Assembly (NCBI GenBank): GCA_020631955.1
Contig: JACKGL010000002.1
Span: forward strand, 13,860 to 77,859
Length of the DNA: 64,000 bases
Source: Candidatus Nomurabacteria bacterium
GTDB taxonomy: Bacteria; Patescibacteriota; Minisyncoccia; Phycocordibacterales; UBA9973
Direction: 5' to 3'
The notes under the pieces were generated by a model that had not been told where the DNA came from, searched no databases, and worked only from the letters and a program-made list of their open reading frames with translations. The position numbers were made by a program, and so were the translations under genes. Below are positions 23,158 through 63,580 of the stretch, piece by piece (position 1 is the stretch's first letter; the number at the start of each line of letters is the position of its first letter).

Positions 23158-23269
<112 letters not shown>

Positions 23270-23339: not shown

Positions 23340-26710
<3,371 letters not shown>

Positions 26711-27554: not shown

Positions 27555-27635
27555 AAGAGAAATGTTTAAAGGGGTTAACAATAAAGAATATCGATTACTT
27601 TTTATCACGTATTATATTTCCTGTCAAGAAACAGA

Positions 27636-36068: not shown

Positions 36069-36098
36069 AGCAGCGGGCCAAAGGCCCGCTGCTTTTTT
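36069..36098 (+). terminator. Rho-independent terminator
   Basis: agcagcgggcc-aaa-ggcccgctgct is an 11-bp GC-rich stem followed by tttttt. It abuts the recJ stop on the opposite strand. Confidence 0.8.
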
Positions 36099-37740: not shown

Positions 37741-37778
37741 ATTTCCATAACACGGCTTCTGCCAGCTTTTTTGATATA

Positions 37779-42081: not shown

Positions 42082-43548
42082 TTAAATTTCTTCCCAAGAC
42101 ACTACTTGGTACTCAGAAGAAGCTTCTGGAAATCCAGGAGGTGGATCCATAAGCAGATTGGCATCGTAGTTGACCTCTACCACCTGATATCCCCCAGAAG
42201 TCGCAGGGTAATAGAAAGCATAATTTTCATTGGATGCTATCATACCATACACCTCTAGTGAAGCCCTTTGTCTATATGTACTACAAGCCGTGCTGCCGTT
42301 GTTGTAATGCATTCTAGACACACCACCATTTTGAGCTACCATAGCAGCATCTATCTCCATAGTGTCATCAGATACAAGACCTATGAGTATATCGTCTTGA
42401 GCTATAAGACCTATAGCATCAGTACCATCATAGTTTGTATACTTCAAATCATGGTTGATTATTATATGTTTTCTGTTTGGTTCTGAATCAGGCAATATAC
42501 CAGCAGCTATAGTAATACGGTCACCATCTATAGTACCGTCCACCCAAACATGATCTTCAAAGAAGAGTTTTCCATCAGCAGGAAAAGAATAATTCCCTAT
42601 ATAAGACTCTCCTCCAGAAAGCTTTATGGTCCATCCTCCCCAATCAGGATCGTTTGGAGGAGCATCAGGGTCTGCACACCCACCACCTATATTTTGTTGA
42701 AGAAGTACAGTATATAAATCATAAGTACCATCAGTATTCAAGACAACATGGTATCCTTGATACCCAGAAGCTGGATAGTAATTACCGGAAGCTTGAGCGG
42801 CTGTTTTTATCTCTGCTAAGTCTTGAGTAATACCGACAAAATCAATAGCAGCTACACCTACTTCTCGTCCAGCCGCAAAAACATCAGATCTAGTAGCTAT
42901 ACTGCTCGGTGGGGCTTCTGCGGGTACAAAGTTGGCATAAGTACCTGTAAGAGGTGGAGGCTTTACGTGAGTATGAACAGCGTGTTCATTGTCTCCAGTA
43001 TGAAGAGGATCATCGTAGTCAACCATAGCGCTAGTAACTATATTATAAATAGTTCCGTCTATTCTAACACCTTGGTTCGAATGTATCGCTCCTGAGACAG
43101 TAGTGTTTTCTGGTATATAGATATTACTATTAGAAACAATAGCCCATTGAACTAATGACTCCTCAGATAAAGTAATTCTTATTGTTCTTGATATAGTAGA
43201 GTCTTCAACTAAAGTACCAGTAGACTCTATTATCACTAGACCAGAGCCTTCTCCTGGTGGAGTGATATCCAAAGAAAATTCTCCTACTTTAAGATCAAAA
43301 AAATCATAGTAGTCATGAATATAAGGACCTGCCACACCTGTGCCATCTTGGAAGTCGTCTGGGTCGTGAGATAAGTGCCATCTATAGTATTCTATTCCAG
43401 CTTCAGCTATTTGAAGGGCTTGCTCACTTAGTGCGATATGATGATTCAATCTTTGCAAAGAAATAGCCCACCCGACAAGTGCTGTCATGGCAGTAATAGC
43501 AACAGAACTAAAAACAATTACTCCGAGTAATAAACTTCCTTTTTTCAT
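42082..43548 (-). CDS. Pilus-associated protein with a PilX-like N-terminus
   Basis: 488 aa. MKKGSLLLGVIVFSSVAITAMTALVGWAISL...ALQIAEAGIEYY resembles the PilX N-terminal domain. It is the last gene of the pilB-pilC-pseudopilin run. Confidence 0.55.
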   Translation of the reverse strand: MKKGSLLLGVIVFSSVAITAMTALVGWAISLQRLNHHIALSEQALQIAEAGIEYYRWHLSHDPDDFQDGTGVAGPYIHDYYDFFDLKVGEFSLDITPPGEGSGLVIIESTGTLVEDSTISRTIRITLSEESLVQWAIVSNSNIYIPENTTVSGAIHSNQGVRIDGTIYNIVTSAMVDYDDPLHTGDNEHAVHTHVKPPPLTGTYANFVPAEAPPSSIATRSDVFAAGREVGVAAIDFVGITQDLAEIKTAAQASGNYYPASGYQGYHVVLNTDGTYDLYTVLLQQNIGGGCADPDAPPNDPDWGGWTIKLSGGESYIGNYSFPADGKLFFEDHVWVDGTIDGDRITIAAGILPDSEPNRKHIIINHDLKYTNYDGTDAIGLIAQDDILIGLVSDDTMEIDAAMVAQNGGVSRMHYNNGSTACSTYRQRASLEVYGMIASNENYAFYYPATSGGYQVVEVNYDANLLMDPPPGFPEASSEYQVVSWEEI

Positions 43549-43558
43549 CTATATTATA

Positions 43559-44173
43559 TTATAGATTAGTTTTTAAGTTTCTGATAGAAACTTGTGTGGA
43601 TATAGTTATAGGTTCTGGCAATTTAAGTGGGTCTGTATCTATAGTAACTTCTATTTCAACAAGTCTAACATCTTCTACACTCACAGGTTGAGTAAGCGGA
43701 TCTGTAGAACCATCATAATTCTCATCATAATATTGGAAAATATATCCTACAGAAGTATCGATACCACTAGCTATTGTGGTGATAGACTCGGCCCCAGAAT
43801 CATATACAGCTGGCACACCTGAAGGCTCTATTATTCCTCTTTTAAAATCTGTCCCATCCAAAAAGTACCTCATTCTCTCTGTCTGCCCATCAGCATCGTA
43901 GTCAGTATAAAAAGTAAATTCATTATCTCCTGCTGTTTCTATAGCATACGCACCGTTTTCTGAGGTCCGTGCAGCTCTTACTTCTCCAGCTATAGGACGC
44001 ATTATTCCACGTAGCTCATCAGCTGCTTTGAGGAATTGTGAAAACATTCTATTGTAATTAAGAACATTTGCTTGAAACTGACCGGCCACTACTGCAACCA
44101 CAGCTGTTATAGCTACAGCCACCAACAGCTCTATATAAGAAAATCCTCTATTTTTATTTTTAATATTTTTCAT
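43559..44173 (-). CDS. Type IV pilin-like protein (prepilin N-terminal cleavage/methylation motif)
   Basis: It starts MKNIKNKNRG|FSYIELLVAVAITAVVAVVAG, the classic class III signal. The start at 44173 avoids overlap with the upstream gene; the ORF extends to 44212. Confidence 0.8.
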   Translation of the reverse strand: MKNIKNKNRGFSYIELLVAVAITAVVAVVAGQFQANVLNYNRMFSQFLKAADELRGIMRPIAGEVRAARTSENGAYAIETAGDNEFTFYTDYDADGQTERMRYFLDGTDFKRGIIEPSGVPAVYDSGAESITTIASGIDTSVGYIFQYYDENYDGSTDPLTQPVSVEDVRLVEIEVTIDTDPLKLPEPITISTQVSIRNLKTNL

Positions 44174-44175
44174 AA

Positions 44176-45996
44176 TTATGTTTCTGACATAAATATTTCT
44201 ACGTTTTGCCAAGAACCTGTTGATACATTTATGACAGCCACCCCTTCATTATAACCAGATTTTTCTACTAAAACATCATACGTACCAGTAGAGACTCCTT
44301 GGAAAGCAACCTGTCCTGATGGTGTACAGTCAGTAGAGTGTGTTATTGCAACATCTGTCACTGTAGGAGTATAAGCTGTATCAGCGGTTGTAAGATATGC
44401 TCTATATCTTACATATTGGTCCCCATCATGTATGCTATTTATCGTTTGGTTGCTGGTAGTATAATAAGTACCAGTTGTGCCGTCAGGACCAAGAAAATTC
44501 CAAGTTGCATTGTCATTGTTTGTAGCTATTTGGAATCTAACACTGTCTGTACCTGTCTCTGCTGGTTGAGAAATTGGAAGCCAAGTGATTTCACCCCATG
44601 TAGATGGTGATCCAGTATCATAGGTAGATGAACGCAAGTTACCAGCAGACACATACGCGCCTAATGTACCAGATATAGTAAGCTCTCCAGCGACGTTGTA
44701 TCTTACATTAGACCTGTTCCAAAACATAGTTTCATCTACAAAGTCTGCCTGCCCTGCTCCTCCTACCCAATCTGTCTGTTGAAAAGTTCCTCTATATGTA
44801 GTGTCTGTAAGTATATCTGTACCACCAGATGTCTGAGTAAGTGTCACATAAGCATCGTCTAAAGGTAACCCACTATTTAGATCTCTTACTGTCACAAGTA
44901 CTGTAGGTGTATTCTTTGCCGCCACAATAAGTTGTACCGATTGTGACTGGCTAGGCTCAACTGTAAAATCTAGAAGAGGGTTGGCTCCTACTATTTCATA
45001 AGAAGCATCATTGGATTCTATACTATATGTATCCCACTCAAGTGAAGATATAGACAGGTTTCCTCCTGAGTCAGTTGTTAGACTCTGATCATATTTATAC
45101 ACACCATAAGTGGGAAAATATCCTATGGTTTTTGCTCCATGCATATCAAAGTCAAAGCTTGCTATAGGTGTACAGGCAGCATCGACAGAGGTTATGTTTC
45201 CGCTACCGTATTTATCAATAGACAAGGTTATTTGAGTGAGATCGTTTTCTAGTACAGTAGCGTGTGGAAGTGTTGGTGTGGCTCCCCCTAGGTCTGTAGA
45301 GTCATATGTTTGGTCTGAGGAGAAAGAAGATGTCTTATCAACATATATTTCATACGCTTGTGTATAAGGTGGAGCATCTACTATAGTAAGTTCTCCATCG
45401 GCCCCCACTTGGTCATCTATAGCTATGGTTGGAGAAGCTTCATAATTCCTTATTCGTACATTGGCTGCTGGAACAGGGTCTCCTTCTGCGTCTATAACTA
45501 TTATCTTGAGTGACCCATTACCTGTGCTGTTTTCTAGACCTTTTGGTGACACTAGAGTTGTAAAAGTCTCCATATTAACAGTGCTTCCTCCTTCTACATA
45601 TCTTATTTTGAGCTCTACTTGCTTTTGATCCGCTGGAGCATCATCATCAGGAGTACCACCTTCAGTACCGTCAAAATCGTTATCTATATTACGTACTGTC
45701 CTATCTACACGAAAAGTCAATCCTTCTTTTATGTAATTAGTAGATGGATCCAATGTTCCCGGAGGAACACCCCCTGCACCGACACCTATGTTTGCATAAG
45801 GCATATTCCTAACTCTCTCAAACTCCTCGTTGGCGAGAGTCGTCATTATTTCTTTTATTTTTATTTTATTATTTAGCTTTACTATAGTAGCCCAAGCTTG
45901 ATATATAGCTAAACTCACCACCAGGAAAAAAGCAGTGGCGACTAAAGTCTCTATCAAAGTAGTACCTTTATTTCTTTTTGAAAAATAATTATACAT
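44176..45996 (-). CDS. Giant pseudopilin (606 aa) with a prepilin-type N-terminus and Ig-like/carboxypeptidase-regulatory-like repeats
   Basis: It starts MYNYFSKRNKG|TTLIETLVATAFFLVVSLAIY. Later segments such as IIVIDAEGDPVPAANVRIRN, VTVRDLNSGLPLDDAYVTL and YDVLVEKSGYNEGVAVINV resemble CarboxypepD_reg-type beta-sandwiches. Confidence 0.7.
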   Translation of the reverse strand: MYNYFSKRNKGTTLIETLVATAFFLVVSLAIYQAWATIVKLNNKIKIKEIMTTLANEEFERVRNMPYANIGVGAGGVPPGTLDPSTNYIKEGLTFRVDRTVRNIDNDFDGTEGGTPDDDAPADQKQVELKIRYVEGGSTVNMETFTTLVSPKGLENSTGNGSLKIIVIDAEGDPVPAANVRIRNYEASPTIAIDDQVGADGELTIVDAPPYTQAYEIYVDKTSSFSSDQTYDSTDLGGATPTLPHATVLENDLTQITLSIDKYGSGNITSVDAACTPIASFDFDMHGAKTIGYFPTYGVYKYDQSLTTDSGGNLSISSLEWDTYSIESNDASYEIVGANPLLDFTVEPSQSQSVQLIVAAKNTPTVLVTVRDLNSGLPLDDAYVTLTQTSGGTDILTDTTYRGTFQQTDWVGGAGQADFVDETMFWNRSNVRYNVAGELTISGTLGAYVSAGNLRSSTYDTGSPSTWGEITWLPISQPAETGTDSVRFQIATNNDNATWNFLGPDGTTGTYYTTSNQTINSIHDGDQYVRYRAYLTTADTAYTPTVTDVAITHSTDCTPSGQVAFQGVSTGTYDVLVEKSGYNEGVAVINVSTGSWQNVEIFMSET

Positions 45997-45997
45997 T

Positions 45998-47197
45998 TTA
46001 TCCTACAGTATCTAATATAGAATACATTGGTGTAAGCATGGAAATAGCAAAGAAACCTACGGCACCTCCGATAAATATCATAAGTACAGGTTCTATGATA
46101 GTAGATAAATCTTTTGTCTTTTGTTCTACTTCTCCTTCATAAAATATAGCGATCTCATCTAGCATGTTGGAAAGCTCTCCTGTCTCCTCACCCACCTCCA
46201 TCATCTCTCCAAGCATAACAGGGTAAACTTCGGTGTGTTCTTTAAAAATTTTAGATATAGGAATACCTTTTATAACATCTTCTCTGGCCTTATCTATTAT
46301 TCTCTGGAAATATACATTTTGTACTACATCGTGAGTGATCTCCAAAGCTCTAGTAACAGGTACGCCCGCCGCTAGAAGAGATGCCATGGTTCTAGCTGTC
46401 CTAGCAGCATTCATTTCTTTGACTATATTTTTTACAACAGGTAAACGAAGGACTATAAACTGGATATATTTTTTCAATTTTGGATTTTTAACCATATAAA
46501 CGATTCCACCCAAGAAAGCAGCAAACCCTAAGAATATAACGGCTGGATGATTTATAAATAGACTGGAAATCCCTATCACAAACCTAGTAGTAGGCGGCAA
46601 CTCAATACCAAGTCCTTCAAAAGTAGAAGTAAGAGAAGGCACCACAAATATCATCATCAAAACTCCGATAAGACCCATAGCCGCAACTATAATAGAAGGG
46701 TATGTCATTGCTCCTTTTACTTTTTTAGTAAGCAGATAAGATTTCTCAAGAGTTTGACCTATTTCAAGAAGAGTTTTTGAAAGCTGTCCAGACTCTTCAC
46801 CAGCACGTACCATAGAAACAAATATTACGGAAAATACTTTTTTGTGTTTTTCCATTGACTCAGAAAAACTAGCTCCTTTGTCTATATCAGATATCATAGA
46901 AGCTATTATTTTTTTGAATTCTTTATTTTTTGTTTGTTTCTCAAAAACATTCAAGGCTCTAGACAAAGTAAGTCCTGCTTTTAGCATGTTTGATAAGTTC
47001 TTAGCAAAAAGCATTTTCTCAGAAGTCTTTACACTTGAAAACAAAGAGAGAGCTTTCTTTTCTTTTACTTCAACCACTTCTAAAGGGTGGAATCCTTCAG
47101 ATTTGAGAGTCTCTAGTAGTTCTTGTCTTGATTTTGCTTCACGTACTTCGTCGACTCTTTCTCTATTTTGATTTATAGCTTTGACTTTGAAAAACAT
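45998..47197 (-). CDS. pilC: Type IV pilus / T2SS platform protein (PilC/GspF family)
   Basis: 399 aa with two GspF-type repeats (..LSRALNVFEKQTKN..; ..VTRALEITHDVVQN..), three TM segments and a C-terminal MTPMYSIL. Confidence 0.85.
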   Translation of the reverse strand: MFFKVKAINQNRERVDEVREAKSRQELLETLKSEGFHPLEVVEVKEKKALSLFSSVKTSEKMLFAKNLSNMLKAGLTLSRALNVFEKQTKNKEFKKIIASMISDIDKGASFSESMEKHKKVFSVIFVSMVRAGEESGQLSKTLLEIGQTLEKSYLLTKKVKGAMTYPSIIVAAMGLIGVLMMIFVVPSLTSTFEGLGIELPPTTRFVIGISSLFINHPAVIFLGFAAFLGGIVYMVKNPKLKKYIQFIVLRLPVVKNIVKEMNAARTARTMASLLAAGVPVTRALEITHDVVQNVYFQRIIDKAREDVIKGIPISKIFKEHTEVYPVMLGEMMEVGEETGELSNMLDEIAIFYEGEVEQKTKDLSTIIEPVLMIFIGGAVGFFAISMLTPMYSILDTVG

Positions 47198-47214
47198 CTA
47201 TATAAATTATACAC

Positions 47215-48969
47215 TTATTCGGTGATAACTCGAAGCACTTCTTCGGTAGAAGTAAGTCCTAAGACTGCTTGGTATATACCGTCTTCAAGCATAGTCATCA
47301 TTCCTTCTTTTTTCGCCTGAGCTTCAATATCATCTGATGAAGCACCTTTTAATATAAGTTCTTTTATAGTAGGAGTGACATCCATAACTTCGTGTATACC
47401 TACTCTACCTTTATACCCATCTTCACATTCTGCTCCTGGTTTTGGTCTATAAAGAGGAACTTCTTTCCAGGTGTCTGTATTTTTTATAAGTTTTTCTGCT
47501 TTTAAGAAGTCCAGCATTCTATCTAGATCGATAAGCTTACCGAGAGCTTGTATTTCAGCATCTTCCATAAAATATTTTTCTTTACTGTTGCAAAGTCTTC
47601 TAACAAGACGCTGAGCAATGATTGTCTTTACCGTAGATACAATAAGAAAAGATTCGGCTCCCATGTCTATCATACGAGGAATAGCTCCAGCTGCTGAGTT
47701 GGTGTGGATAGTAGATAACACAAGGTGTCCTGTAAGAGCGGCGTTGATGGCCAAAGACACAGTTTCTCCGTCTCGAATTTCCCCCACCATGATGATGTCT
47801 GGGTCCTGACGAAGAAGTGTACGAAGTCCGTTGGCAAAAGTAAGCCCTATTTCACTCTTCACCTGAGTCTGGTTTATTCTAGGCATTTGGTATTCTATCG
47901 GATCCTCGACTGTAGATATGTTTACATCTGGAGTATTTAACATATCAAGTACAGTATAAAGCGTAGTAGTCTTACCAGAACCAGTAGGTCCAGTAGCCAA
48001 AATCATACCCGTAGTTTGTCTCATAGCGTTGTGTATTTTTTCAAGGCCTTCTCCATGAAAACCAAGTCCTTCCAAAGTAAAACCTTTTGAGTTTTCTTTC
48101 AAAAGACGGATAACAACTTTTTCTCCGAAATAAATAGGCAAAGTAGATACACGGAAAGAAACTCTATCCCCCGCCTCTGTAGTAATACGAAATCTACCGT
48201 CTTGAGGAAGTCTTTTTTCATCCAACTTCAGATTAGAAAGCACTTTTATACGTGCCACTATACCGGCTGCTGTTTCTTTAGGTAAAACCATGGCATCATG
48301 CAAAATACCATCTGTTCTATACCTTACCAACAAAGAAGCTTCTTGTGGTTCTATGTGAATATCGGATGCGTTTTGTATTATGGCGTGAGATATAAGAGTA
48401 TCTACTATTTTTATAATAGGAAGATCTTCTGCCATTTCTTTAAGATCTTTTTCACTTGCTCCACCTTCATCACTTTCTGATACAGCTTTTAGACTCTGTG
48501 ATTCTTTTTGAATAATAGCATCGAAGTCTGCTTTAAGACTTTTTTTGTATTGGTTGAGAGCGTCTTTCATTGAAGAAGCATCTGTAAGACGAGGAAGTAT
48601 TTTAAGTCCGACTTTTTTCTTTATAAAGTCCAGCACCGGTAGGTCGTCTATATCGAGCATAGCCACCTCCAGGCCTCTGTCGCTTCTTCTGTAAGCTACG
48701 ATATTGTTCTTGGCGGCTAGAGGTTCTGGTATAAGAGAAAGCACTGCTGTGTCTATCTTTTGATTCACAAGACTCACAAAAGGTATACCTAAAACATAAG
48801 CTTCCATCCTGCGAAGCTCATCTTCTTTTACTTTACCTTCACGTAATAGAATATTTTCAAAAGGCTCTCCTGTTTTTTTGGATTCATTCGAAGCTGTTTT
48901 TATATCTTCAGCACTTACCAACCCGGATTGTTCTATGAATTTTCGGAGCTCATTTTCCTTAATGTACAT
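47215..48969 (-). CDS. pilB: Type IV pilus assembly ATPase (PilB/GspE family)
   Basis: 584 aa with a GspE-N-like N-terminus, Walker A ATGPTGSGKTTTLYT, an Asp box, Walker B IMVGEIRD and a His box LTGHLVLSTIHTN. Confidence 0.9.
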   Translation of the reverse strand: MYIKENELRKFIEQSGLVSAEDIKTASNESKKTGEPFENILLREGKVKEDELRRMEAYVLGIPFVSLVNQKIDTAVLSLIPEPLAAKNNIVAYRRSDRGLEVAMLDIDDLPVLDFIKKKVGLKILPRLTDASSMKDALNQYKKSLKADFDAIIQKESQSLKAVSESDEGGASEKDLKEMAEDLPIIKIVDTLISHAIIQNASDIHIEPQEASLLVRYRTDGILHDAMVLPKETAAGIVARIKVLSNLKLDEKRLPQDGRFRITTEAGDRVSFRVSTLPIYFGEKVVIRLLKENSKGFTLEGLGFHGEGLEKIHNAMRQTTGMILATGPTGSGKTTTLYTVLDMLNTPDVNISTVEDPIEYQMPRINQTQVKSEIGLTFANGLRTLLRQDPDIIMVGEIRDGETVSLAINAALTGHLVLSTIHTNSAAGAIPRMIDMGAESFLIVSTVKTIIAQRLVRRLCNSKEKYFMEDAEIQALGKLIDLDRMLDFLKAEKLIKNTDTWKEVPLYRPKPGAECEDGYKGRVGIHEVMDVTPTIKELILKGASSDDIEAQAKKEGMMTMLEDGIYQAVLGLTSTEEVLRVITE

Positions 48970-55278: not shown

Positions 55279-57393
55279 ATGAACGATAGTTTTACAAAGT
55301 TTATACCAGAAGATAAATCGTGGCTCACAAGGGTAGGTGTATTAGATATAATAAATGGTTACACAGATATTGAAAAGTTCATCGACCAACTATCTAATGC
55401 AAATGAAGATGTACTCGCTATTAGAAATGCTAGTAAAGACTGGAGAAGTAATAGTAAAATACGTGTTGGTGAATCAGCTACTTTATATAGACTTCTCAGA
55501 TTTGCTGCTTGGAAAATGGATTTAAATAAAACATTTATAATAAAAGGTAGCTTAAAAAAAAGACATATAACAAACAACCCGGAAATAATTAAACTTAAAC
55601 AGAAAGATCTACTTAAATTAGATAATGAAACCACCCAATGGGCGACTGCTTCGGTTATATGTGGTGATTTAGAAAGGTTACCTAACCCACCATTAAAGCT
55701 TAAAGAAACATATGAGGCAGTAGATCATTGGAATTTAAAAAGGGGTCAGGGTTTGTGTTGGGATGTTAAATATGATGTAACGATTGAAAGACAAGCTCAT
55801 ACTTTTCTTATGTTACTTAAAAATAAACCCGTTGATTATACTCCTTTGTGTTCTGATGATTACTGTTTTGCAAGAGTGTTTGATTTTATAAATAAAGAAA
55901 GCGGGGCTAAGTTCTGGCCCAGTTTAATTGGACACGAAACTAACCGTATTGAAGAAATGGAAATAGCTATAAAAGAAGCAGAAAGTACTCTTCACATCAC
56001 ATCAGAAGATCACCGGGTGATACAAGCTCTATCAATGTGGGGTGTATTAAAAAACAAAAATCTTATCTTTAAACATAAAAAAGCTGTGAACAAATCATGG
56101 CCACTTTTTTGGGATTTTTTAGAGTATGCAAAAAAAGAATCAAAAAATGAAAACATTTTAAATGATACCGTAGTTAACAAAACTCATAAAGACATCTTGG
56201 GTATGATTTCTCAAGAAGTAAAAAAAGAGAATGATACTATTTCATTAATACCCTCTGAAAATATAATGAGTAAATTGGCAACTAGTGCATATACACTTAA
56301 CAGTAATAACCGTTATATTATAAAATCTAAAATAGGCTCAAGATATTTCATGCCAGGTAGAGAAAATTTGGGTAATTTAATATCTATTCTTGAGAAAAAA
56401 TTGTGTCAGGCATATAATGTTGAGTTTTGTATAACAAAAGGTCTTTCTGGTATTCACAATATGGATATAGTAATGTCAGCTATTAATAAAATTTCTAATA
56501 AAATTATTATTATAGATACTTTGAGTGGTGGGCATAGTAAAACTAAAGGTATTGCAATAAAAAATGGTTTCCAGGTTGAAACGATAAAAATAGACTTTGA
56601 TACTTGGGATTTAGATTATAAAATTTTAGATAAGCTAATTAAAAAGTGGGAAAAAGAAAGTGTTTTTATTTATATAGACCACACAGTATCAGTTAACCCA
56701 TTAGATATGCACAAGCTTGTAAAGAAAGTTCCCTCTAAGTGGATCATTTATTATGATATCTCCCATTTACAACTGTTTTACTTTACTCAAATTTTTAAAT
56801 TTCCTAGGGGAAAAAACTTCTTTTTTGGTGGAAGTACACATAAAACATTTCCTGGCCCACAAAAGTCTATAGTATTATTAAATAATAGATCATTATATGA
56901 GTTAGTTGATTCTGAATTCGTAAAAAACACCTCTAGTGTACATACCGGCAGTTTATTAGCTCTACTTATAACTGTAATTGAGATGGAGAAGTTTGGTAAA
57001 AAATATGCAGAAGATATATTACTAAAAACAAGAAAGCTCGCTAAATTACTGAGTAGAGAGCTTGATGTGATTGGTCCGAAACCCACTCTAACAAACACTC
57101 ACCAAATCTGTATTGATGTTCCTAATATAGTTGAAATTACTCAACGTCTAGCATCTGTTGGTATTATTACTATGCCCATGAGAACCCCCTCAAAAAATAA
57201 AAGCGGTCTTAGGCTTGGTATACAAGAATTATGCAGACTGGGGTTAAAAGATAAACATTTAGAAACGATATCTAAGGCTATAATTACTTGTGTAAAATAT
57301 GAAGACTTTGAAAGTCAAAAAAGAAACATTTACAGATTAGCTAAAAAGCTAAATAATATAAAATATACATTTCCTAATAAAAAATACTTCTAA
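55279..57393 (+). CDS. Fusion protein: shortened EPSP-synthase (AroA)-like N-terminal domain + divergent serine hydroxymethyltransferase (SHMT)-like PLP domain
   Basis: SHMT half (about aa 300-704): ISLIPSENIMS (vs IELIASENYTS), RYFMPG, SGGHSKTKG (vs HGGHLTHG), DISHLQL (vs DMAHVAGL), GGSTHKTFPGPQ (vs TTTTHKTLAGPRG, the PLP-Lys), NTHQICIDV (vs DNHLFLVDL) and SGLRLGIQELCRLG (vs SGIRVGTPAITRRG). N-terminal half: KSWLTRVGVL (vs AroA KSVSNRALLL), VGESATLYRLLRFAAW...IIKGSLKKRHI (vs LGNAGTAMRPLAAAL...LTGEPRMKERPI) and SEDHRVIQALSMWGVL......KSWPLFWDFLE (vs YNDHRMAMCFSLVAL......KTFPDYFEQL). Confidence 0.7.
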   Translation: MNDSFTKFIPEDKSWLTRVGVLDIINGYTDIEKFIDQLSNANEDVLAIRNASKDWRSNSKIRVGESATLYRLLRFAAWKMDLNKTFIIKGSLKKRHITNNPEIIKLKQKDLLKLDNETTQWATASVICGDLERLPNPPLKLKETYEAVDHWNLKRGQGLCWDVKYDVTIERQAHTFLMLLKNKPVDYTPLCSDDYCFARVFDFINKESGAKFWPSLIGHETNRIEEMEIAIKEAESTLHITSEDHRVIQALSMWGVLKNKNLIFKHKKAVNKSWPLFWDFLEYAKKESKNENILNDTVVNKTHKDILGMISQEVKKENDTISLIPSENIMSKLATSAYTLNSNNRYIIKSKIGSRYFMPGRENLGNLISILEKKLCQAYNVEFCITKGLSGIHNMDIVMSAINKISNKIIIIDTLSGGHSKTKGIAIKNGFQVETIKIDFDTWDLDYKILDKLIKKWEKESVFIYIDHTVSVNPLDMHKLVKKVPSKWIIYYDISHLQLFYFTQIFKFPRGKNFFFGGSTHKTFPGPQKSIVLLNNRSLYELVDSEFVKNTSSVHTGSLLALLITVIEMEKFGKKYAEDILLKTRKLAKLLSRELDVIGPKPTLTNTHQICIDVPNIVEITQRLASVGIITMPMRTPSKNKSGLRLGIQELCRLGLKDKHLETISKAIITCVKYEDFESQKRNIYRLAKKLNNIKYTFPNKKYF

Positions 57394-57560
57394 TTTTATT
57401 TCCATGCACATCAGCTAGTTATGTGGGGGAAAATGGTTTGACAAAAGGGTAAAATAATGATTCAATAGAGATAAGAGGATTTGTTGGGAATACTACGTAA
57501 ATTTCCAACCTCAATCCCCTGAATTCCTTAAAAATTTTATAACACTAAACCCTAACTATC

Positions 57561-58820
57561 ATGAAAAAGTTAACTATTTTTTTGTTAACCTCTATCATGA
57601 TGATAGGGGTAACTTTTGGACAATTTAACACCTACCACTTCGAAGGAGTGGAGGCGTTCTCTTTTGACTGGGAAAATGGTGAAGAAGCCACCACTTCCAA
57701 TTCGTTCTTCGAGATCGATGAGGAGAAATTTGGCTACAGCCACCTGAATATCCAGAAAGAAGACGGCAGAACGTTCTTGGTGAATTCCAAGAATGATGTG
57801 GCCGAGTACTTCAACTACACCTTAGCCGACAGGCCGGTGGATGTAGTAACCGTAAATAGCGGTGTGATATTCGTATCCACCAAAAACGGAATCTACAACC
57901 TGGAAACAGGGGAAATGCTCTCTGGTATCGAAGGTTTCATCACTGGAACCAATGGTAATATCAGGATGGATTACGACCCCGTGCTCAACCGCTTGTATTT
58001 CGCAGGTGGAAAAGTAGAAGGGTTCGGCTTCAGAGACTTTGAAAGTGGTATAACCACTTTTTACGGTTATCTGGATGAATTTCCTGACTATGCTGTCAAC
58101 GATATCGAAGTAGTGGATGGTGATGTATACATCGGAGCTGGTGAGCTTTGGGTGTATAACGTCATATCTGAAGACTTCGGACTGATCGAAGGTGTGCCGA
58201 GCTTCCTTTCAGTAGGAGGTATCGATGAACTCCCGGACGGATCTATATTTGTAGGTGGTGCTGACCTAAGCAACCAGAACACACTGGTATGGATCAAGAA
58301 TGGAACATACCAGAACGAGTACGCTTTATCTGGCATCCCTTTCTTCTACAATGGTGAATACTTCCTTAGTGGAAGTGCCGGACCTGCAGACGACGGGTAT
58401 TTCCATTACTTTGATCCTGTAACTGGTATCACGTCATCTGTGGTGGCTAGTGGAGTGGATATGCAAAACAACATCCAAGTAACTTTAGTTGATGGAGAGT
58501 TTTGGTTTTATTCACAATACGGAATAGCTACAAACATTGTAGGTGTAATGGGCTACTATGGTTATCCTGTGGCCAGACTGACCGATGACGAGATCGTGGG
58601 TATCCATGATACACAGATACTGTCATTTACTATCTACCCCAACCCCACCACTGAGTGGGTGAAGGTAGAAGGGCTCCCTGCCGGGACTCCTTTGTGGATG
58701 ACAGATGCCATTGGTCGTAGCATAGAGGTTACCCTCATCGCTGCCAACACCATCGATGTGAGTCGACTCCAATCAGGAATTTACTTCCTCAATGGAAAAA
58801 AACTCATAATCCAAAAGTAA
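57561..58820 (+). CDS. Secreted beta-propeller-like protein with a type IX secretion (Por) C-terminal sorting domain; compositionally foreign
   Basis: It has the signal peptide MKKLTIFLLTSIMMIGVTFGQ. The last 65 aa or so, LSFTIYPNPTTEWVKVEGLPAGTPLWMTDAIGRSIEVTLIAANTIDVSRLQSGIYFLNGKKLIIQK, match the T9SS CTD pattern (YPNP...., .D..G(R/K)........ID.S.L..G.Y). Hand GC count is 27/60 at 57661-57720 against 19/60 at 56401-56460. Confidence 0.75.
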   Translation: MKKLTIFLLTSIMMIGVTFGQFNTYHFEGVEAFSFDWENGEEATTSNSFFEIDEEKFGYSHLNIQKEDGRTFLVNSKNDVAEYFNYTLADRPVDVVTVNSGVIFVSTKNGIYNLETGEMLSGIEGFITGTNGNIRMDYDPVLNRLYFAGGKVEGFGFRDFESGITTFYGYLDEFPDYAVNDIEVVDGDVYIGAGELWVYNVISEDFGLIEGVPSFLSVGGIDELPDGSIFVGGADLSNQNTLVWIKNGTYQNEYALSGIPFFYNGEYFLSGSAGPADDGYFHYFDPVTGITSSVVASGVDMQNNIQVTLVDGEFWFYSQYGIATNIVGVMGYYGYPVARLTDDEIVGIHDTQILSFTIYPNPTTEWVKVEGLPAGTPLWMTDAIGRSIEVTLIAANTIDVSRLQSGIYFLNGKKLIIQK

Positions 58821-58829
58821 CGTTTTTAC

Positions 58830-58859
58830 AGATCCTGACTGAAAAGTCAGGATCTTTTT
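58830..58859 (+). terminator. Rho-independent terminator of the T9SS-CTD gene
   Basis: agatcctgact-gaaa-agtcaggatct is an 11-bp stem followed by ttttc. Confidence 0.8.
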
Positions 58860-58894
58860 CGTTTCTACACTAGTATATATACTTATCAAATATT

Positions 58895-58918
58895 AAATCC
58901 CGACTTGAGTCGGGATTT
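58895..58918 (-). terminator. Terminator of the minus-strand secreted-protein operon
   Basis: aaatcccgac-ttga-gtcgggattt lies 23 nt downstream of the stop at 58941. Confidence 0.7.
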
Positions 58919-58940
58919 AATTCAACAATAAACGTGAAAT

Positions 58941-59759
58941 CTATAGACAAAGGTTGTTGTTCTGAGCCGCTACACCACCATAGTGAGTGCTAGAGTTTTT
59001 ACCTGTGACATCTGTGACGTCTAGGTCTATACCCCAGCTATATAGTGGATAGTTCTTGTCTACTACTAGAGTAATACTAGAAGAAGTGGTGCCTCCTGAT
59101 ATGGTAGCATCTCCTACGAGAGAGTGCCAAGAATATGTATATGGAGGAGCCCCTGCACCACCTATGGTAGCAGAAAGTGATATGGTCTCACTACAAGTAC
59201 CACTAGATATAGTGCTCTTTGTGATGGTAATAGGGAGACTCTGGCTACATATGACCACCTTGCCATCTGCGTCTGCACAAAGCGGCGCTCCGTATAGTAT
59301 GTCTGGATTTTCAGCTGAAGAAAGTGAGTTTATTTTAATTGAGTTACTATTAGGAAAATCTATATGTAAAGCCTCAGTTGGAGATGACTCTGCAATTCCA
59401 ATCTTTCCACCCACGAAAACAGAAGCATCTTCATTGTAAGGAATAGTACCCACAAAAGCAGATCCTTCTTCTAAAATGGATGACCCTTCAACATAGGTGC
59501 CTTTCGTAAATGATATACCCCCGGCGTCAAACTTATAGTTTACCAAGTCAGCAAGAGCTGGGTCTGCATATCCTACAGCCACAGAACCTTGTCTGGTCTG
59601 GTCTGGTGAAAGTCTGTTCACTGGTGTAGCGACATTGTTTAGTGGTGGCGCACCGTCAGCGTTGGTCCATGTAGCATCTGCTCTATCCATACGAGCCATA
59701 CCTATAGCTAGTACTAGAGCAAGACTTATTATTCCTATTGTACGATAAATTTTTTTCAT
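58941..59759 (-). CDS. Secreted Gly/Thr/Ser-rich protein, paralog C (W..PP..N...P(I/V)N motif, Cys-loop, C-terminal P.TY.W Ig-like domain)
   Basis: The start MKKIYRTIGIISLALVLAIG is signal-like. Motifs are TWTNADGAPPLNNVATPVNRLSPDQTRQGSVAVG, GGKIGIAESSPTEALHI, LCADADGKVVIC and GGAGAPPYTYSW. The ORF extends to 59792. Confidence 0.7.
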   Translation of the reverse strand: MKKIYRTIGIISLALVLAIGMARMDRADATWTNADGAPPLNNVATPVNRLSPDQTRQGSVAVGYADPALADLVNYKFDAGGISFTKGTYVEGSSILEEGSAFVGTIPYNEDASVFVGGKIGIAESSPTEALHIDFPNSNSIKINSLSSAENPDILYGAPLCADADGKVVICSQSLPITITKSTISSGTCSETISLSATIGGAGAPPYTYSWHSLVGDATISGGTTSSSITLVVDKNYPLYSWGIDLDVTDVTGKNSSTHYGGVAAQNNNLCL

Positions 59760-59763
59760 AACA

Positions 59764-60747
59764 CTAATCACATATACTTGTATCTGGTCCACCGTCTGCG
59801 GCTTCTACATAATCTTGAGACAATACCCAAAATGGTCCGATAGAAGCACTCTCTGTGCTACCCCCAGAGCTGACTGAAAGGTTGATACTGTATGTAGTAC
59901 TTAGGTTGTCAGCTGTATTTCTATACACTTTTATTTTTGGAGCAGAACTGCTGTATGGTGCAGATGTAGTCACTACCGGTGCACCACCAGCCTCACCTGC
60001 TACATATGTCACTGTCCATGTGTATGTATAGCTCCCTGTTCCACCTGTAGCGTACACAGTAGGGAAATGATTGAGATATTCGCATTCTTGAACCGCTGAA
60101 CCATAAGAGAGATTGGCAGAAAGACTGGCTCCACCTTCTTCACAAAGACTCAATACTCCACTAGAGCTGACACATATCTCTACTGGGTTTTCTTCACCGT
60201 GAGCAAGTCCTGCTAGTCTAAGAGACCCTCCATCACTAGCAATATGTAGACCTTGTTCTGGACTATCAGTACCCACTCCTATCTTCCCTCCTACAAGAAG
60301 TTTAGAAGAAGGCTGATAAGGAAGTACTCCTACAAATACTCCGTCTGTAGTAAGTACATCAGATGTGCTTCTAAGCCCTCTTGAGACAGTGGCTCCGTTT
60401 ACATCTAGTCTATAAGTATCTAAGTCGTAGTCAGACACTCCTGGTATACAACCTAGAGCTAGCCCTCCGCTTTTAGTACCACTAGCTGTATCTTTATTGA
60501 AAATATCTTTTATCTGTCCACCTGGAAAACCCGCTACAGGCTCTGCCCAAGGAGAGTCTACATAGCAGCTACCTAAATATACATCATCAGCATCTGCCAG
60601 GTCAGTGTCTGCTGTACCTACTTCTTCTACTGGAGGACCTGGATCTATATCTTCTTCACCTACAATATCAGCACTGGCTTGTCCGAGACCTATCACCAAA
60701 AGCAGTGCAAGGAAAAATATTTTTAGTGTATTAAAATCTTTTTTCAT
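59764..60747 (-). CDS. Secreted Gly/Thr/Ser-rich protein, paralog B
   Basis: The start is MKKDFNTLKIFFLALLLVIGLGQASA. Motifs are GGKIGVGTDSPEQGLHI, ICVSSSGVLSLC and GGTGSYTYTW. The ORF extends to 60765. Confidence 0.7.
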   Translation of the reverse strand: MKKDFNTLKIFFLALLLVIGLGQASADIVGEEDIDPGPPVEEVGTADTDLADADDVYLGSCYVDSPWAEPVAGFPGGQIKDIFNKDTASGTKSGGLALGCIPGVSDYDLDTYRLDVNGATVSRGLRSTSDVLTTDGVFVGVLPYQPSSKLLVGGKIGVGTDSPEQGLHIASDGGSLRLAGLAHGEENPVEICVSSSGVLSLCEEGGASLSANLSYGSAVQECEYLNHFPTVYATGGTGSYTYTWTVTYVAGEAGGAPVVTTSAPYSSSAPKIKVYRNTADNLSTTYSINLSVSSGGSTESASIGPFWVLSQDYVEAADGGPDTSICD

Positions 60748-60748
60748 A

Positions 60749-61597
60749 CTAACACTCAGTATCATAAGTTACTAATCCTGTTACTGTACCTGTGTATGTA
60801 TCACTTCTAGTGTATCCGTTGTCATCTGTCACTGAGACTGATACTGAGTAGTTGGTTATAGGAAAAGTATCTCTCTCTACTCGCACTATGACAGAAGAAG
60901 CAGAACTAGTACCTATGATAGAGTTGCCACTCGTATCACCAGTAAGAGTCCATGAGTATGTAAATGGTGACTTCCCTGAGGTGTTTGGATAAGCTGCTAT
61001 TATGGCGTCATAGTTACAGTTGTTGGCTGGCTGTGCGTCGTAGCTGTTTACAAACTCTGCACTTACTTCAAAAAGGTTTTGGCAAAGGTTGAATACCCCA
61101 TCTTCGTCAGCGCAAAGTCTAGCAGGATACACTGTACCAGGAGCTTGGTTGGCTGAAGCAAACTTTTCTATCTTAGCTGTGCCATCTATGTCAACACTAG
61201 CTTGTGCTGCTAGTGAGTAACCATTTTTAAGTGATCCATTTAAAATCAAGTTCGAGTCTGGTGAAGTAAAAGCAGAGTCTACCCAACCAACATCCAAAGT
61301 ACTAAATTCATCTGTCCCTTGTATTATAATATTTCCCTCATTAGCAAGGCCAGATGTCTTCAGGCTCCCACACACTTCAAGCGTACCTTCTCCTCCAGGA
61401 CATGTTCCGTTACCCACACGAAGACCTCCTTGTTTTACTTGGTTGGTAGTAGTGGTATTTATCGGAGCTGGAGTATTGCCTAGTGGCGGATTGTCTGAAG
61501 GTTGATTCCAAGCAGCACTAGCAAGCCCAGCAAACCCAACTATCACTAGAGCTAGGAGAAATGTTTTTATCAAGTTTTGATCATTTTTTCTCATCAT
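60749..61597 (-). CDS. Secreted Gly/Thr/Ser-rich protein, paralog A
   Basis: The signal is ..FLLALVIVGFAGLASA|AW. Motifs are AWNQPSDNPPLGNTPAPINTTTTNQVKQGGLRVG, LCADEDGVFNLC and SGKSPFTYSW. Confidence 0.7.
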   Translation of the reverse strand: MMRKNDQNLIKTFLLALVIVGFAGLASAAWNQPSDNPPLGNTPAPINTTTTNQVKQGGLRVGNGTCPGGEGTLEVCGSLKTSGLANEGNIIIQGTDEFSTLDVGWVDSAFTSPDSNLILNGSLKNGYSLAAQASVDIDGTAKIEKFASANQAPGTVYPARLCADEDGVFNLCQNLFEVSAEFVNSYDAQPANNCNYDAIIAAYPNTSGKSPFTYSWTLTGDTSGNSIIGTSSASSVIVRVERDTFPITNYSVSVSVTDDNGYTRSDTYTGTVTGLVTYDTEC

Positions 61598-61609: not shown

Positions 61610-63580
61610 CTATCTTTCTATAATAATAGGTGGCACCCCTCTACACTCTGGTGAAGTAGATTCTGCAGTACAAAGCACAGGACATTCTTCTGTTTCTGGA
61701 TCACAAGGTTCTTCTCCTACTCCCACGTACGCATATGCAGCTATATCTGACCCTCCATAAAGTGGAGTACATCTTAGGGTAAATGTAGTAGAAGCTGTCA
61801 CTGAAACGTTTTCACTACCATCACCATCTTCACAGTCCACCGGACCAAATGATGATGAAGGTAAGGACAAAGCTTCTCCTCCTGTAGTGTTAGAAGTAGT
61901 CCAAGAAAGATTTACTGTTCCACCAGGATAAGCAAGTGTAGTAGGACTAGCAGTAAGAGTCAGAGTAGCTTCTGCATCACATTCTTCTCCGTTTGGATCG
62001 TTTGGATTGGAGTCTACACACTCTCCATCTACTACTACTGGTGCGTTGATAGCTGCACTACATGAAGAAGATGTTCCGTCAGTACTTGTTACATTTACTG
62101 TATAGACTGTTTCTGGTGCTGTGAAAGCAAGGTTGTTTGCACTACCGTTGACCGCGACTGCTCCTCCCCATGAGGCTGTAGCTGAAGTAGCGTTGGTAGA
62201 TGTCCAAGCTATGTCTACTTGTCCGTCTTCTAATGTTGCTGAAGTGATGTTACATGAAGGAGTAAGTGTACCTCTAGCTACTACTGTTTCTGCAGTGTCT
62301 ACTGCTCCGCCGACTGCTTGAGTACATTGGATTCTAAATATTGTAGGGTTGGTACCGACGTATACGTTAGGCAATGAAGCTGAAGGTGTAGTCGCATTTA
62401 TAGCTGCACGAGGTCCGTCAAATCCTGAAGGTGGTGTAGAAGGAGGAATAGTGGTACCTGTACATGAAAGATAGTTTGTTCCTGAAGGAGTAAACCATGT
62501 CAAAGTAGTTTTATATCCTCCAGTAGAAAATACAGGTGAAGGAGTAGCTTGAAGTACAAGTCTTGTTCCTGCATTACATTCTAGAGCTACTGTGACAGAA
62601 GATGAGTAAGGGTTTCCATCAGCTCCAGTACAGTTGAGAGTATAGGTGGTAGGATTGGCACTCGGTGTGACTGTGGTAGATCCTGAAGGTATAGTCACTG
62701 ATTCTCCTGTAATAATAGCGTCTGAAGAAGAAAGTGAACAAGAAGCCATGTCTTGTGTAGACCATGAAAGAGTAACTGGTTCAGTACATGTAGAAGCAGA
62801 TGAAGAAGTAAGGTTCACTTGTGGTTGGTCCATATCTACTACTACAGAATAAGTAGGACCTGAAAACTTAGTCCATCCTACTACTTCATCTCCCCAAGCA
62901 TAACCTGAAAATTGCCCTGCTCCGTAAAGATCAGGTACAGAAACGCCATAAGATGATCCTCCAAATATTCCAGAACATCCAAATATTCCACTGTTGTCAC
63001 ATGAAAGTGATATCCATCCGTCCCAATCATCACCGTGAGCCAGCACTCTAGCCCATCCTGTAATATCACCAGAAGCCAGATCTACTTTAGGAGTACATGT
63101 TCCTTCTGGACAACCTCCTTCGTTGAAAGATATCCATCCTACTTCACTACTCCAAGCATATCCACTCATGTTACCTGTAAGAGGGTCTACGTTTACTCCG
63201 TAGTTTGATCCATCATAAGGAATGTCTACTGCTACAGCTTTTTTGGTGGAAAAAACATTGGAAGCTATCTTGAAAAGATTGAACTTAGCTACTTTGTCTA
63301 CAAAAGAAATATTTTTAGGATTTTCATAGTAGGCAGCAAGCTCTCTATAGTCTTGGTATGTAGGACCGAAAGTTATATCTTCTCCTACACCTCCATCTTC
63401 TGTATCTGCTGTCAGACATGCATCGTTGTCTGTACAGTTGAAAGATATATAACCAATATTTTTAGACCAAGCTAGACCAGACACGTTGTCGCCAGAATCG
63501 GCAAAAGCCTTTCCAGTAAAAGCAAAGGCTACAAAGAGTATTAAGGCAACTAATTTAATTTTATTAAGCATATTTAACAT
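61610..63580 (-). CDS. Large secreted protein: four G(Y/L/W)AW....GWISF repeats followed by four or more Ig-like L.W.T domains
   Basis: The signal is MLNMLNKIKLVALILFVAFAFTGKAFA. The repeats are SGLAWSKNIGYISFN, SGYAWSSEVGWISFN, TGWARVL..WDGWISLS and SGYAWGDEVVGWTKFS. The later domains are VTLSWSTQDMASCSL, TTLTWFTPSGTNYLSC, VDIAWTSTNATSATAS and VNLSWTTSNTTGG. Confidence 0.7.
   Translation of the reverse strand: MLNMLNKIKLVALILFVAFAFTGKAFADSGDNVSGLAWSKNIGYISFNCTDNDACLTADTEDGGVGEDITFGPTYQDYRELAAYYENPKNISFVDKVAKFNLFKIASNVFSTKKAVAVDIPYDGSNYGVNVDPLTGNMSGYAWSSEVGWISFNEGGCPEGTCTPKVDLASGDITGWARVLAHGDDWDGWISLSCDNSGIFGCSGIFGGSSYGVSVPDLYGAGQFSGYAWGDEVVGWTKFSGPTYSVVVDMDQPQVNLTSSSASTCTEPVTLSWSTQDMASCSLSSSDAIITGESVTIPSGSTTVTPSANPTTYTLNCTGADGNPYSSSVTVALECNAGTRLVLQATPSPVFSTGGYKTTLTWFTPSGTNYLSCTGTTIPPSTPPSGFDGPRAAINATTPSASLPNVYVGTNPTIFRIQCTQAVGGAVDTAETVVARGTLTPSCNITSATLEDGQVDIAWTSTNATSATASWGGAVAVNGSANNLAFTAPETVYTVNVTSTDGTSSSCSAAINAPVVVDGECVDSNPNDPNGEECDAEATLTLTASPTTLAYPGGTVNLSWTTSNTTGGEALSLPSSSFGPVDCEDGDGSENVSVTASTTFTLRCTPLYGGSDIAAYAYVGVGEEPCDPETEECPVLCTAESTSPECRGVPPIIIER

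Follow-up and report, generated by a model that had tools for sequence, protein, structure and literature searches.

A mosaic gene with a type IX secretion-type C-terminal domain at a conserved slot of candidate phyla radiation bacteria shares identical tracts with Chitinophagales

Introduction

Type A C-terminal domains (CTDs), as found on cargo proteins of type IX secretion systems (T9SS), are compact seven-stranded immunoglobulin (Ig)-like β-sandwiches that are recognised by the PorV shuttle (PMC12618676), and a glutamine at position +1 of signal peptidase I substrates, the ‘Q-rule’, has been described as a Bacteroidetes-specific feature (PMC5837995, PMC10653852). Patescibacteria are described as monoderm, without an outer membrane and rich in competence genes (PMC11665869). 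This contribution deals with a gene for a 419-residue protein that combines a predicted Gln +1 signal peptide with a type A CTD and that is located in a 64-kb stretch of DNA (contig JACKGL010000002.1; the whole stretch is called the window) of Candidatus Nomurabacteria, a member of the candidate phyla radiation (CPR) for which NCBI uses the labels Ca. Nomurabacteria and Ca. Paceibacterota.

Gene conversion or recombination diversifies cassette-type variable surface loci, for instance pilE/pilS of Neisseria or the polymorphic loci for adhesins and toxins. For activated sludge, a study on DNA exchange describes near-identical fragments that are shared between metagenome-assembled genomes (MAGs) of CPR and other bacteria, with 84 events listed generically (Wang et al. 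2023, PMC10031880). The gene described below has properties of both. It is found in different mosaic alleles within one species, a counterpart is present at the same position in other CPR lineages, and tracts of it recur without any difference in Chitinophagales. We presume, with slightly more confidence than doubt, that it represents a conserved cassette slot of CPR bacteria for a variable secreted protein with Bacteroidota-type signals, the content of which is exchanged with Chitinophagales.

Results

Anatomy of the 419-aa protein

The coding sequence (Table 1) determines 419 amino acids (aa) that form a signal peptide, a β-propeller body and a type A T9SS-like CTD. An earlier note on this DNA had proposed a T9SS-type CTD, and both curated profiles bear this out by a small margin: PF18962 (Por_Secre_tail) matched residues 358–411 with 29.9 bits (gathering cut-off 27) and TIGR04183 (NCBIfam) matched with 26 bits (cut-off 23). 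The domain is located at the extreme C-terminus (residues 358–419 of 419) of a protein with a Sec signal peptide, the sole matches of a PDB sequence search were CTDs of T9SS cargo proteins, and a profile of the target family matched 3,644 proteins via the CTD part. In allele comparisons the ratio of nonsynonymous to synonymous changes (dN/dS) of the CTD was 0.15–0.38. The N-terminus, read by eye from the sequence, is MKKLTIFLLTSIMMIGVTFG followed by Gln22 and has a putative cleavage site between FG and Q; the earlier note had pointed out the ending FGQ. The GenBank entry of the identical protein (MCB9820386.1; 327 aa), encoded on a 206,827-bp contig of a ‘Candidatus Nomurabacteria bacterium’, starts later and thereby loses the signal peptide; we favour the 419-aa reading because homologs are conserved from Met1.

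A first AlphaFold2 model was too poor (pLDDT 46.7) and was discarded. The usable model (m6a715ecdd832), obtained from a slightly deeper alignment, had a pTM of 0.60, with a pLDDT of 80–90 at residues ≈80–290; residues 357–418 were modelled as seven to eight short strands (seven with at least three residues) at a pLDDT of just 54–71. The best 50 of 536 Foldseek matches (E ≤ 1e-3) to this medium-confidence model were all propellers with a probability of 1.0 and a TM-score of ≈0.4. The BT4663 sensor domain ranked at the top (E = 5e-8, TM-score 0.40), followed by BamB, fucose lectins and NHL domains. No Pfam family, Reg_prop included, exceeded its threshold in a Pfam scan of the body. The predicted β-propeller is a fold-level match only, from which neither a family assignment nor a ligand specificity can be inferred.

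Homologs of the 419-aa protein are rare: five were found among 5.8 billion proteins, and an exhaustive profile search of 1.84 billion representative proteins added fragments and one distant relative only, so that the body is essentially an orphan. No relatives were found when the species representatives of GTDB were scanned with family peptide patterns or in viral contigs, and the 59 matches in JGI metagenomes were all at the level of the CTD, none of them accompanied by genes of the CPR module described below. All non-CPR carriers that were found are Bacteroidota. A report on T9SS CTDs in Patescibacteria was not found in the literature searched. Note that a contig of 1,386 bp (L012) codes for a 60%-identical family member with a low GC content at third codon positions (GC3) of 0.31; its leader is degenerate and keeps the loop and the 3′ stem arm of the window-type hairpin (ACTACGTAAATTTCCAA). 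L012 may represent one more lineage of CPR, in which the copy has been ameliorated.

Mosaic alleles within one species

The junctions between the gene and its CPR flanks were reproduced, with A-type and B-type alleles, in nine assemblies that differ in sample and in assembler (they include MEGAHIT assemblies, a scaffold set, contigs based on Logan unitigs and NCBI MAGs), namely the contig of the window, L001–L005, an NCBI contig of 84.5 kb, L022 (643,671 bp) and L023. The assembly or binning chimera that the earlier note had considered is refuted by these independent assemblies.

The window, L001 and L022 were compared at the nucleotide level over the gene and seven flanking genes. The flanking genes p410, p704, p429 and p656 were 99.1–100% identical in all three and the small module genes p283, p333 and p282 were 85–99% identical, whereas the CTD gene of the window showed 85.9% identity to that of L001 and only 61.6% to that of L022. 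The latter is a second allele type (‘B’) with 40% aa identity to the window protein, and in total three mosaic alleles are present within the species of the window. In sliding windows, blocks of 100% identity alternated with blocks of 50–80%, and the edges of the blocks were sharp. Compared to L001, the window is 100% identical up to 57470, 64–80% identical in the leader and signal peptide, again 100% identical at 57650–58020, 82–98% identical up to 58420, 56–78% identical in the C-terminal part, and 100% identical from 58850 onwards. With L022, identity is complete in the leader and signal peptide, ≈50% in the body and ≈75% in the CTD. Such a mosaic is in line with recombination between alleles that had diverged, with putative breakpoints near the module borders. 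The region of p283, p333 and p282 also has sharp low-identity blocks near 59300–59375 and 59425–59575 and keeps a native GC3. The close relatives L013 and L014 were rejected as clean empty sites: they have kept the trio of 410-, 200- and 704-aa genes, and divergence begins directly downstream of it.

Identical tracts in Chitinophagales

The window shares an exact tract of 416 bp with a Chitinophagales insertion, and the exact tracts are even longer for the alleles of L001/L002 (998 bp, A type) and L022/L023 (1,134 bp, B type). In L010 and L011 an A-type and a B-type gene are arranged in tandem, and the proteins encoded on both flanks match those of Chitinophagales MAGs exactly. Six long Chitinophagales contigs (L016–L021) are without the 2.85-kb insert; L010:1-445 and L010:3299-5509 align side by side to them, at 7523 and 7509, where a terminator hairpin lies between two convergent genes. 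As read from these alignments, the 2.85-kb pair (L010:446-3298) is a strain-specific insertion that is anchored on both sides. No transposase, integrase or other mobility gene is present inside the insertion. The insertion site (L016:7509-7523) is located between convergent genes for a TonB receptor and an MBL-hydrolase; a partial inverted copy of the site hairpin (GTCCCCACAGAGTTACCCGC) is found at the left junction of L010, and at the right junction the hairpin is complete. The 3′ ends of the two L010 cassettes are 85% identical, which is consistent with gene conversion. An assembly chimera was rejected for L010, since both flanks return to one intergenic site of the Chitinophagales genome and the insert has a unique junction sequence; it is also ruled out by the insert having CTDs of its own and by a second assembly at 99.77% identity. 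A 420-aa Por_Secre_tail protein encoded near the insertion site (L016:311-1573) was rejected as a relative because it is similar over the CTD only.

Between the phyla, the B type differs at none of the 340 codons for signal peptide and body while its CTD has a synonymous divergence (dS) of 0.72; for the A type, eight differences were counted over the 318 codons of the body, and the dS of its CTD is 0.62. The CPR species and the Chitinophagales population were found in the same sample series. The Chitinophagales cassettes contain the leader hairpin of the window species and the −10 box and lack the −35 box and the CPR terminator. Cassette A of L010 has ACG instead of ATG at L010:615-617, and a copy in L083, located between aconitase and SusC-like genes and preceded by a similar hairpin, has ATA instead of ATG at about 815–817. 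The loss of the start codon in these two Bacteroidota-context copies suggests decay after transfer. The third Bacteroidota context, L006 (S7 protein at least 90% identical to Bacteroidota MAGs), contains a 73%-identical intact copy beside rpsL with native GC3 and without the hairpin. Synteny is seen among the CPR contexts, but not among the contexts of L006, L010 and L083. The transfer of the 2.85-kb pair most likely ran from CPR to Chitinophagales because the strain-specific insertion carries a CPR-type leader, and the most parsimonious assumption for the cassette family is that it is at home in CPR and leaks into the Bacteroidota.

A conserved slot in other CPR lineages

In five CPR lineages (the window, L085, L088, L089 and L092) the surface-module gene p656 always adjoins small genes and a CTD slot. 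The small genes p283, p333 and p282 belong to one CPR family with an N-terminal membrane helix and a W..P..PP.N.P.P.N...Q.K.G motif; p282 has a weak PKD-like similarity. L085–L087 code for P0099, a full-length distant homolog of the window protein (29% identity; PF18962 40.4 bits), and downstream of P0099 and convergent to it L085 has a gene with the N-terminal motif of p283/p282 as well as a homolog of p656 that is 39% identical over 700 aa. The L085 genome is low in GC, and the best named match of a neighbouring gene is ‘Ca. Parcubacteria’. In L089/L090 (‘Ca. Pacebacteria’) p656 and two small genes are followed by a convergent gene for a 476-aa protein (PF18962 49.8 bits), and its GC3 of 0.325 is native (flanks 0.28–0.37). 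This layout recurs in L092, where the protein has 443 aa and a PF18962 score (24.5 bits) below the threshold. L088 codes for a 398-aa protein with a truncated CTD that follows the module on the same strand and is not convergent. The GC3 of the slot gene is offset from the flanks in three of four lineages measured (window +0.23, L085 ≈+0.12, L092 ≈−0.15).

In profile comparisons the L089 and L092 proteins matched the target family over the CTD only, and the L088 protein gave a weak match at the level of the propeller. The slot proteins of all five lineages have a hydrophobic leader that ends in Gly or Ala directly before Gln; judged by eye, this is not the case for the neighbouring secreted proteins of the module. 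By its distribution, the slot is old in CPR. An isolated recent import of the gene is disfavoured because the orthologous slot holds a CTD gene in other, deeply diverged lineages of CPR, in one of them with native GC3. Downstream of the surface module of L088 (L088:14611-20016, plus strand) there is a gene for a giant protein of more than 2,100 aa with SpvB/RHS/YD-repeat domains, which hints that the neighbourhood of the module collects genes for interactions between cells.

Promoter and leader hairpin

The upstream region has the same layout in the five CPR lineages: a GTGGATAA-like box, TTGACA, 17 nucleotides, a TTGAAT-like −10 box and an 8-bp hairpin, with the promoter consensus TTGACA-N17-T(T/C)(G/C/T)AAT. 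The −35 box of the window is part of a flank that is 100% identical among the CPR strains, and the −10 box is common to the window and cassette A of L010. The stem of the hairpin varies in sequence by lineage and its pairing is kept (56/56 cells), with compensatory changes in all eight pairs. The covariation score is 1.13 compared to 0.26 ± 0.09 in shuffles, of which none of 500 reached 1.13, and slid registers show 23–59% pairing. The loop is conserved as CATAGCTAA, ACTACGTAA or CTTACGTAA (consensus C/A-W-T-A-S-S-T-A-A). A match of the leader hairpin in Rfam was not found. The covarying hairpin with its conserved loop is a candidate for a new cis-regulatory RNA element.

Composition of the gene and content of the window

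As the earlier note had counted by hand, the GC content of the CTD gene is well above that of its left neighbour (44.8% vs 30.4%). Codon usage shows this contrast more strongly: GC3 is 0.495, the 47 other open reading frames (ORFs) of the window average 0.262 (sd 0.047, maximum 0.384; z = 5.0), and relative synonymous codon usage (RSCU) correlates with that of native genes by 0.44, the value for all other long ORFs being at least 0.77. The composition changes abruptly at both ends of the gene. In the genes at 58941–63580 the raised GC comes from codon positions 1 and 2 (amino-acid composition) and GC3 is native (0.21–0.30). An amelioration test of whether the CTD module has resided in CPR for longer than the body was negative, as the CTD modules have the highest GC3 (0.54–0.60). 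GC-biased gene conversion was rejected as the source of the high GC3 since the equally mosaic genes p283, p333 and p282 keep native GC3; it is further ruled out by L092, the slot gene of which has a GC3 below its flanks.

The strong terminator of its own that had been ascribed to the gene is indeed present (Table 1) and is kept among the CPR alleles. A second hairpin downstream is probably the terminator of the convergent gene p283. In agreement with the earlier note, which had seen no T9SS context, a Pfam scan of the 47 other ORFs of at least 150 aa detected neither a T9SS component (SprA/Sov, PorK/L/M/N, PorV, PorU) nor a second CTD. The gene content is typical for CPR and includes SecDF, FtsW, BacA, L10/L12, PGK/TIM, GH130, ComEC, RecJ and type IV pilus genes. 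ComEC and RecJ are located, with the pilus cluster, 9–24 kb from the cassette, and together they are a plausible route for DNA uptake and processing.

A common higher-GC donor of the CTD gene and of a GC-rich gene at 27.2 kb, as had been proposed, is not supported: the GC-rich stretch at 23–27 kb consists of 23S and 5S rRNA genes, and nothing links the ORF at 27.2 kb to the CTD gene. This ORF codes for 137 aa with a secreted-looking N-terminus (MKKMFYIPILLMMMSMIAAVMAPQNVSA), lies in a GC-rich patch of ≈400 bp (GC 0.48, GC3 0.61; RNA fold z-score −3.7) and is followed by a hairpin of its own; no match to the patch was found in Pfam or Rfam. The 23S rRNA gene is 3,368 nt long compared to 2,925 nt of the model, i.e. 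it has ≈440 nt of insertions; the 5S gene is located beyond it and neither a 16S nor a tRNA gene is present within the 64 kb, so that the rRNA genes are unlinked. Three ORFs that adjoin the rRNA genes (187, 151 and 182 aa; GC 25–27%, GC3 0.16–0.20; no Pfam match) are a second compositional outlier, in the opposite direction to the CTD gene. The 704-aa protein upstream of the cassette contains an EPSP-synthase C-terminal-like piece (residues ≈234–283) and a diverged SHMT-like domain (residues ≈300–700). Its gene is kept together with the two upstream genes in the Patescibacteria L013, L014 and L088; L015 has the N-terminal part only.

Table 1 Positions of the cassette, of its surroundings and of further features in the window
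Feature	Position	Strand	Basis or remark
−35 box TTGACA	57438..57443	+	conserved in the window, L085, L089, L092 and L088
−10 box TTCAAT, 17 nt past the −35 box, then conserved AGAG..TAAG	57461..57466	+	alignment
Leader hairpin, 8-bp stem TTGGGAAT/ATTTCCAA, 9-nt loop ACTACGTAA	57484..57508	+	covariation
Mosaic hypervariable segment	57470..58850		sliding-window identity; flanks 100% identical among conspecific CPR genomes
Coding sequence, 419 aa	57561..58820	+	ORF call, Pfam/NCBIfam matches, homologs conserved from Met1
Sec signal peptide, aa 1–21	57561..57623	+	read from sequence; predicted cleavage exposes Gln22
Tract of 416 bp with 100% identity to L010:690-1105 (cassette A in Chitinophagales)	57636..58051		exact match
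Variable β-propeller body, aa 22–340	57624..58580	+	AlphaFold2 model and Foldseek
Linker (RLTDDE..) and type A CTD	58581..58817	+	Pfam match aa 358–411 = nt 58632–58793
Intrinsic terminator, 11-bp stem and T-tract	58830..58862 (stem 58830–58855)	+	dG −18.2 kcal/mol, z = −4.8
Second hairpin, 13-bp stem	58892..58921		dG −17.6 kcal/mol, z = −4.9
p283, p333, p282, small surface-protein genes	58941..61597	-	homologous to genes between p656 and CTD gene in L085, L088, L089, L092
p656, anchor gene of CPR surface module	61610..63580	-	36–46% identity among five CPR lineages
704-aa protein (p704)	55279..57393	+	
Type IV pilus cluster	42082..48969	-	pilin with N-methylation motif, PilC, PilB (43559–48969)
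RecJ	36097..37788	-	
ComEC	33251..34771	-	
ORF, 137 aa, in GC-rich patch	27195..27608	-	
23S rRNA	23340..26707	-	
5S rRNA	23159..23266	-	
Three low-GC ORFs	20704..22518	-	

Discussion

A model for the cassette

By its C-terminus the 419-aa protein belongs to the type A CTDs, and it is presumably not a cargo of a T9SS of the cell that makes it. As CPR are monoderm and the window is without a T9SS, the CTD should have no part in T9SS export from that cell. We regard the gene as native to its place. The slot lies at the edge of a surface module (p656 and the small ‘PP.N-motif’ proteins) of Paceibacteria-type CPR and provides, besides a σ70-type promoter and a terminator, a structured leader hairpin. 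Constant parts of the cassette protein are the predicted Gln +1 signal peptide and the type A CTD, with a highly variable body between them. DNA could enter the CPR cell via ComEC and type IV pili, and alleles would then be replaced piecewise by homologous recombination at the conserved ends, with breakpoints near the borders of leader and signal peptide, body and CTD. Such a replacement would account for the foreign GC3 and for three mosaic alleles in a near-clonal population. The same cassettes have moved between the CPR species of the window and the co-occurring Chitinophagales population. Exported most likely by Sec, the protein would be a variable extracellular factor for adhesion or for interaction with a host. 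Its CTD may be kept as a dock for the co-encoded module or for engaging CTD-recognising T9SS components of Bacteroidota hosts. A re-use of the CTD for another purpose, which the earlier note had listed among its explanations, is plausible in the light of the domain being kept across monoderm lineages.

A bolder version of this model would be that a clade of Paceibacteria aims the secreted protein, by its Gln +1 end and its CTD, at PorV and PorU of the host, so that the episymbiont exploits host secretion for attachment or display, and that the sharing of alleles names a Chitinophagales host. We regard this version as rather improbable.

Several points weigh against the cassette model as a whole. 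The four CPR lineages beyond the window were chosen through p656 as anchor and through the context of P0099, a homology of the bodies across the lineages is not demonstrable, and ‘the same gene’ therefore means the same position, leader, signal peptide and CTD. The register of the hairpin was picked by eye. A CTD and a Gln +1 signal are hallmarks of the Bacteroidota and fit a repeated import as well as a retention in CPR, and conceivably the slot is refilled time and again from a reservoir in the Bacteroidota. In the close relatives L013 and L014 neither a CTD gene nor the module is found beside p704. The GC3 of the cassette is high in every module (0.46–0.60), and no sampled genome, CPR or Bacteroidota, matches its codon usage (RSCU r ≤ 0.33). 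Perfect identity between metagenome assemblies may be inflated by consensus or bubble merging if a sample is shared. The absence of T9SS components applies to the 64 kb of the window, which is a part of the genome.

Alternative explanations

One alternative is a simple import, in which a T9SS cargo gene would have come recently and in one direction from Bacteroidota, with the CTD as a vestigial passenger bound to decay. Its attraction is evident from a GC3 that is five standard deviations off, a foreign codon usage, a CTD and a Q-rule signal peptide that are both Bacteroidota hallmarks (PMC5837995, PMC12618676), near-identical DNA in a Chitinophagales genome, the 73%-identical homolog with native GC3 in L006, and close relatives without the gene. 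A decaying passenger is difficult to reconcile with the purifying selection on the CTD, and a recent import does not explain why the orthologous slot is filled in three to four other deeply diverged CPR lineages that share the promoter and the covarying leader. Moreover, the Chitinophagales copy is an insertion in a minority strain with a CPR leader and a damaged start codon in one cassette, and copies in Bacteroidota are rare and mutually non-syntenic. We consider this explanation quite unlikely. Thus, what remains of the acquisition from Bacteroidota that the earlier note had put forward is the sharing of DNA across phyla and the foreign composition, but not an isolated recent import, as the slot is occupied in other CPR lineages. 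Relatives with the gene at native GC, which that note had set beforehand as counting against its reading, are represented in part, by L089 with its native GC3. Related to this alternative is a recurrent capture, in which the slot is conserved in CPR and is repeatedly refilled with T9SS cargo genes of Bacteroidota hosts, the signals being re-imported and not selected in CPR. The deviating GC3 in most of the lineages measured, the lack of detectable homology between bodies that have a constant CTD and Gln +1, and the DNA-uptake machinery encoded by CPR (PMC11665869) would all follow from such a process. However, the exhaustive profile search revealed almost no relatives of the body in Bacteroidota, and the copies present there look derived: they are strain-specific insertions, two of three contexts (L010, L083) have a CPR-type hairpin, and ACG or ATA replaces the start codon. 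In addition, refilling needs a 5′ recombination arm that unrelated cargo genes do not have. A recurrent capture appears rather unlikely to us.

Somewhat unlikely is the explanation that the CTD is merely an Ig-like structural or anchoring domain, for instance one that docks to the cell wall or to the module of p656 and small proteins, that no link to a host exists and that the Chitinophagales insertion is the result of an incidental uptake. The tight and ancient linkage of the slot gene to the module genes, the compact seven-stranded β-sandwich fold of type A CTDs (PMC12618676) and the missing outer membrane of CPR (PMC11665869) are in agreement with an anchor. An anchor leaves unexplained why the Gln +1 rule applies to the slot protein but not to its module neighbours, and why all non-CPR carriers found are Bacteroidota. 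Finally, an assembly or binning chimera, in which the GC-rich gene would be foreign to the CPR contig, might be suspected from the abrupt change of composition at both ends and from 100% identical tracts in another phylum, which could in principle mislead assemblers. The nine assemblies with A-type and B-type alleles, the promoter, leader and terminator at the junctions, which are conserved CPR features, and the Chitinophagales contig, both flanks of which are anchored at a single intergenic site and which has distinct CTDs of its own, leave a practically negligible probability for a chimera.

Taken together, we prefer the conserved cassette slot with exchange between CPR and Chitinophagales. 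The hosts of almost all Paceibacteria/Parcubacteria and the way in which they are recognised are unknown, and the cassette together with identical tracts of kilobase length provides a concrete hypothesis of a Chitinophagales host, in which the 419-aa protein is a candidate host-interaction molecule. The T9SS CTD has evidently been kept for long in a phylum without an outer membrane, and a match to PF18962 or TIGR04183 is not a proof of a T9SS or of an FCB (Fibrobacteres-Chlorobi-Bacteroidetes) origin; likewise, CTD genes in CPR bins are not automatically contamination.

Comparison with described systems

The protein resembles T9SS cargo with type A CTDs (RgpB, RemA, AmyB) in having an N-terminal Sec signal peptide with a putative +1 Gln, in a CTD of ≈70–80 aa that has the motifs YPNP, D..G and G.Y and exceeds the curated cut-offs, and in the layout of a functional body followed by the CTD. 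Unlike such cargo, it is encoded in the genome of a monoderm CPR bacterium with no T9SS parts found in 64 kb, its gene is part of a conserved CPR locus with CPR promoter and leader, and its propeller body is an orphan. A multi-bladed β-propeller that is followed by a putative Ig-like domain is also reminiscent of BT4663 (PDB 4a2l), a periplasmic sensor of a Bacteroides hybrid two-component system, of BamB and of Photorhabdus fucose lectins; the likeness to these proteins is at the level of the fold only (TM-score ≈0.4, 12–17% identity).

With the exchange events of activated sludge the locus has in common that fragments of more than 500 bp are more than 99% identical between a CPR and a co-occurring non-CPR bacterium. 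The parts of the text and supplements of that study considered here report no T9SS-type gene, conserved slot or Chitinophagales partner (PMC10031880), and the unit that is exchanged at the present locus is, in contrast to the events described in those parts, a defined cassette with conserved regulatory DNA.

The constant ends, the variable middle and the mosaic alleles with sharp breakpoints in a clonal background are features that the cassette shares with neisserial pilE/pilS. The difference concerns the source of variation: silent donor copies as for pilE were not seen in the CPR region examined, and the donor pool of the cassette appears to be located in other genomes, including those of another phylum.

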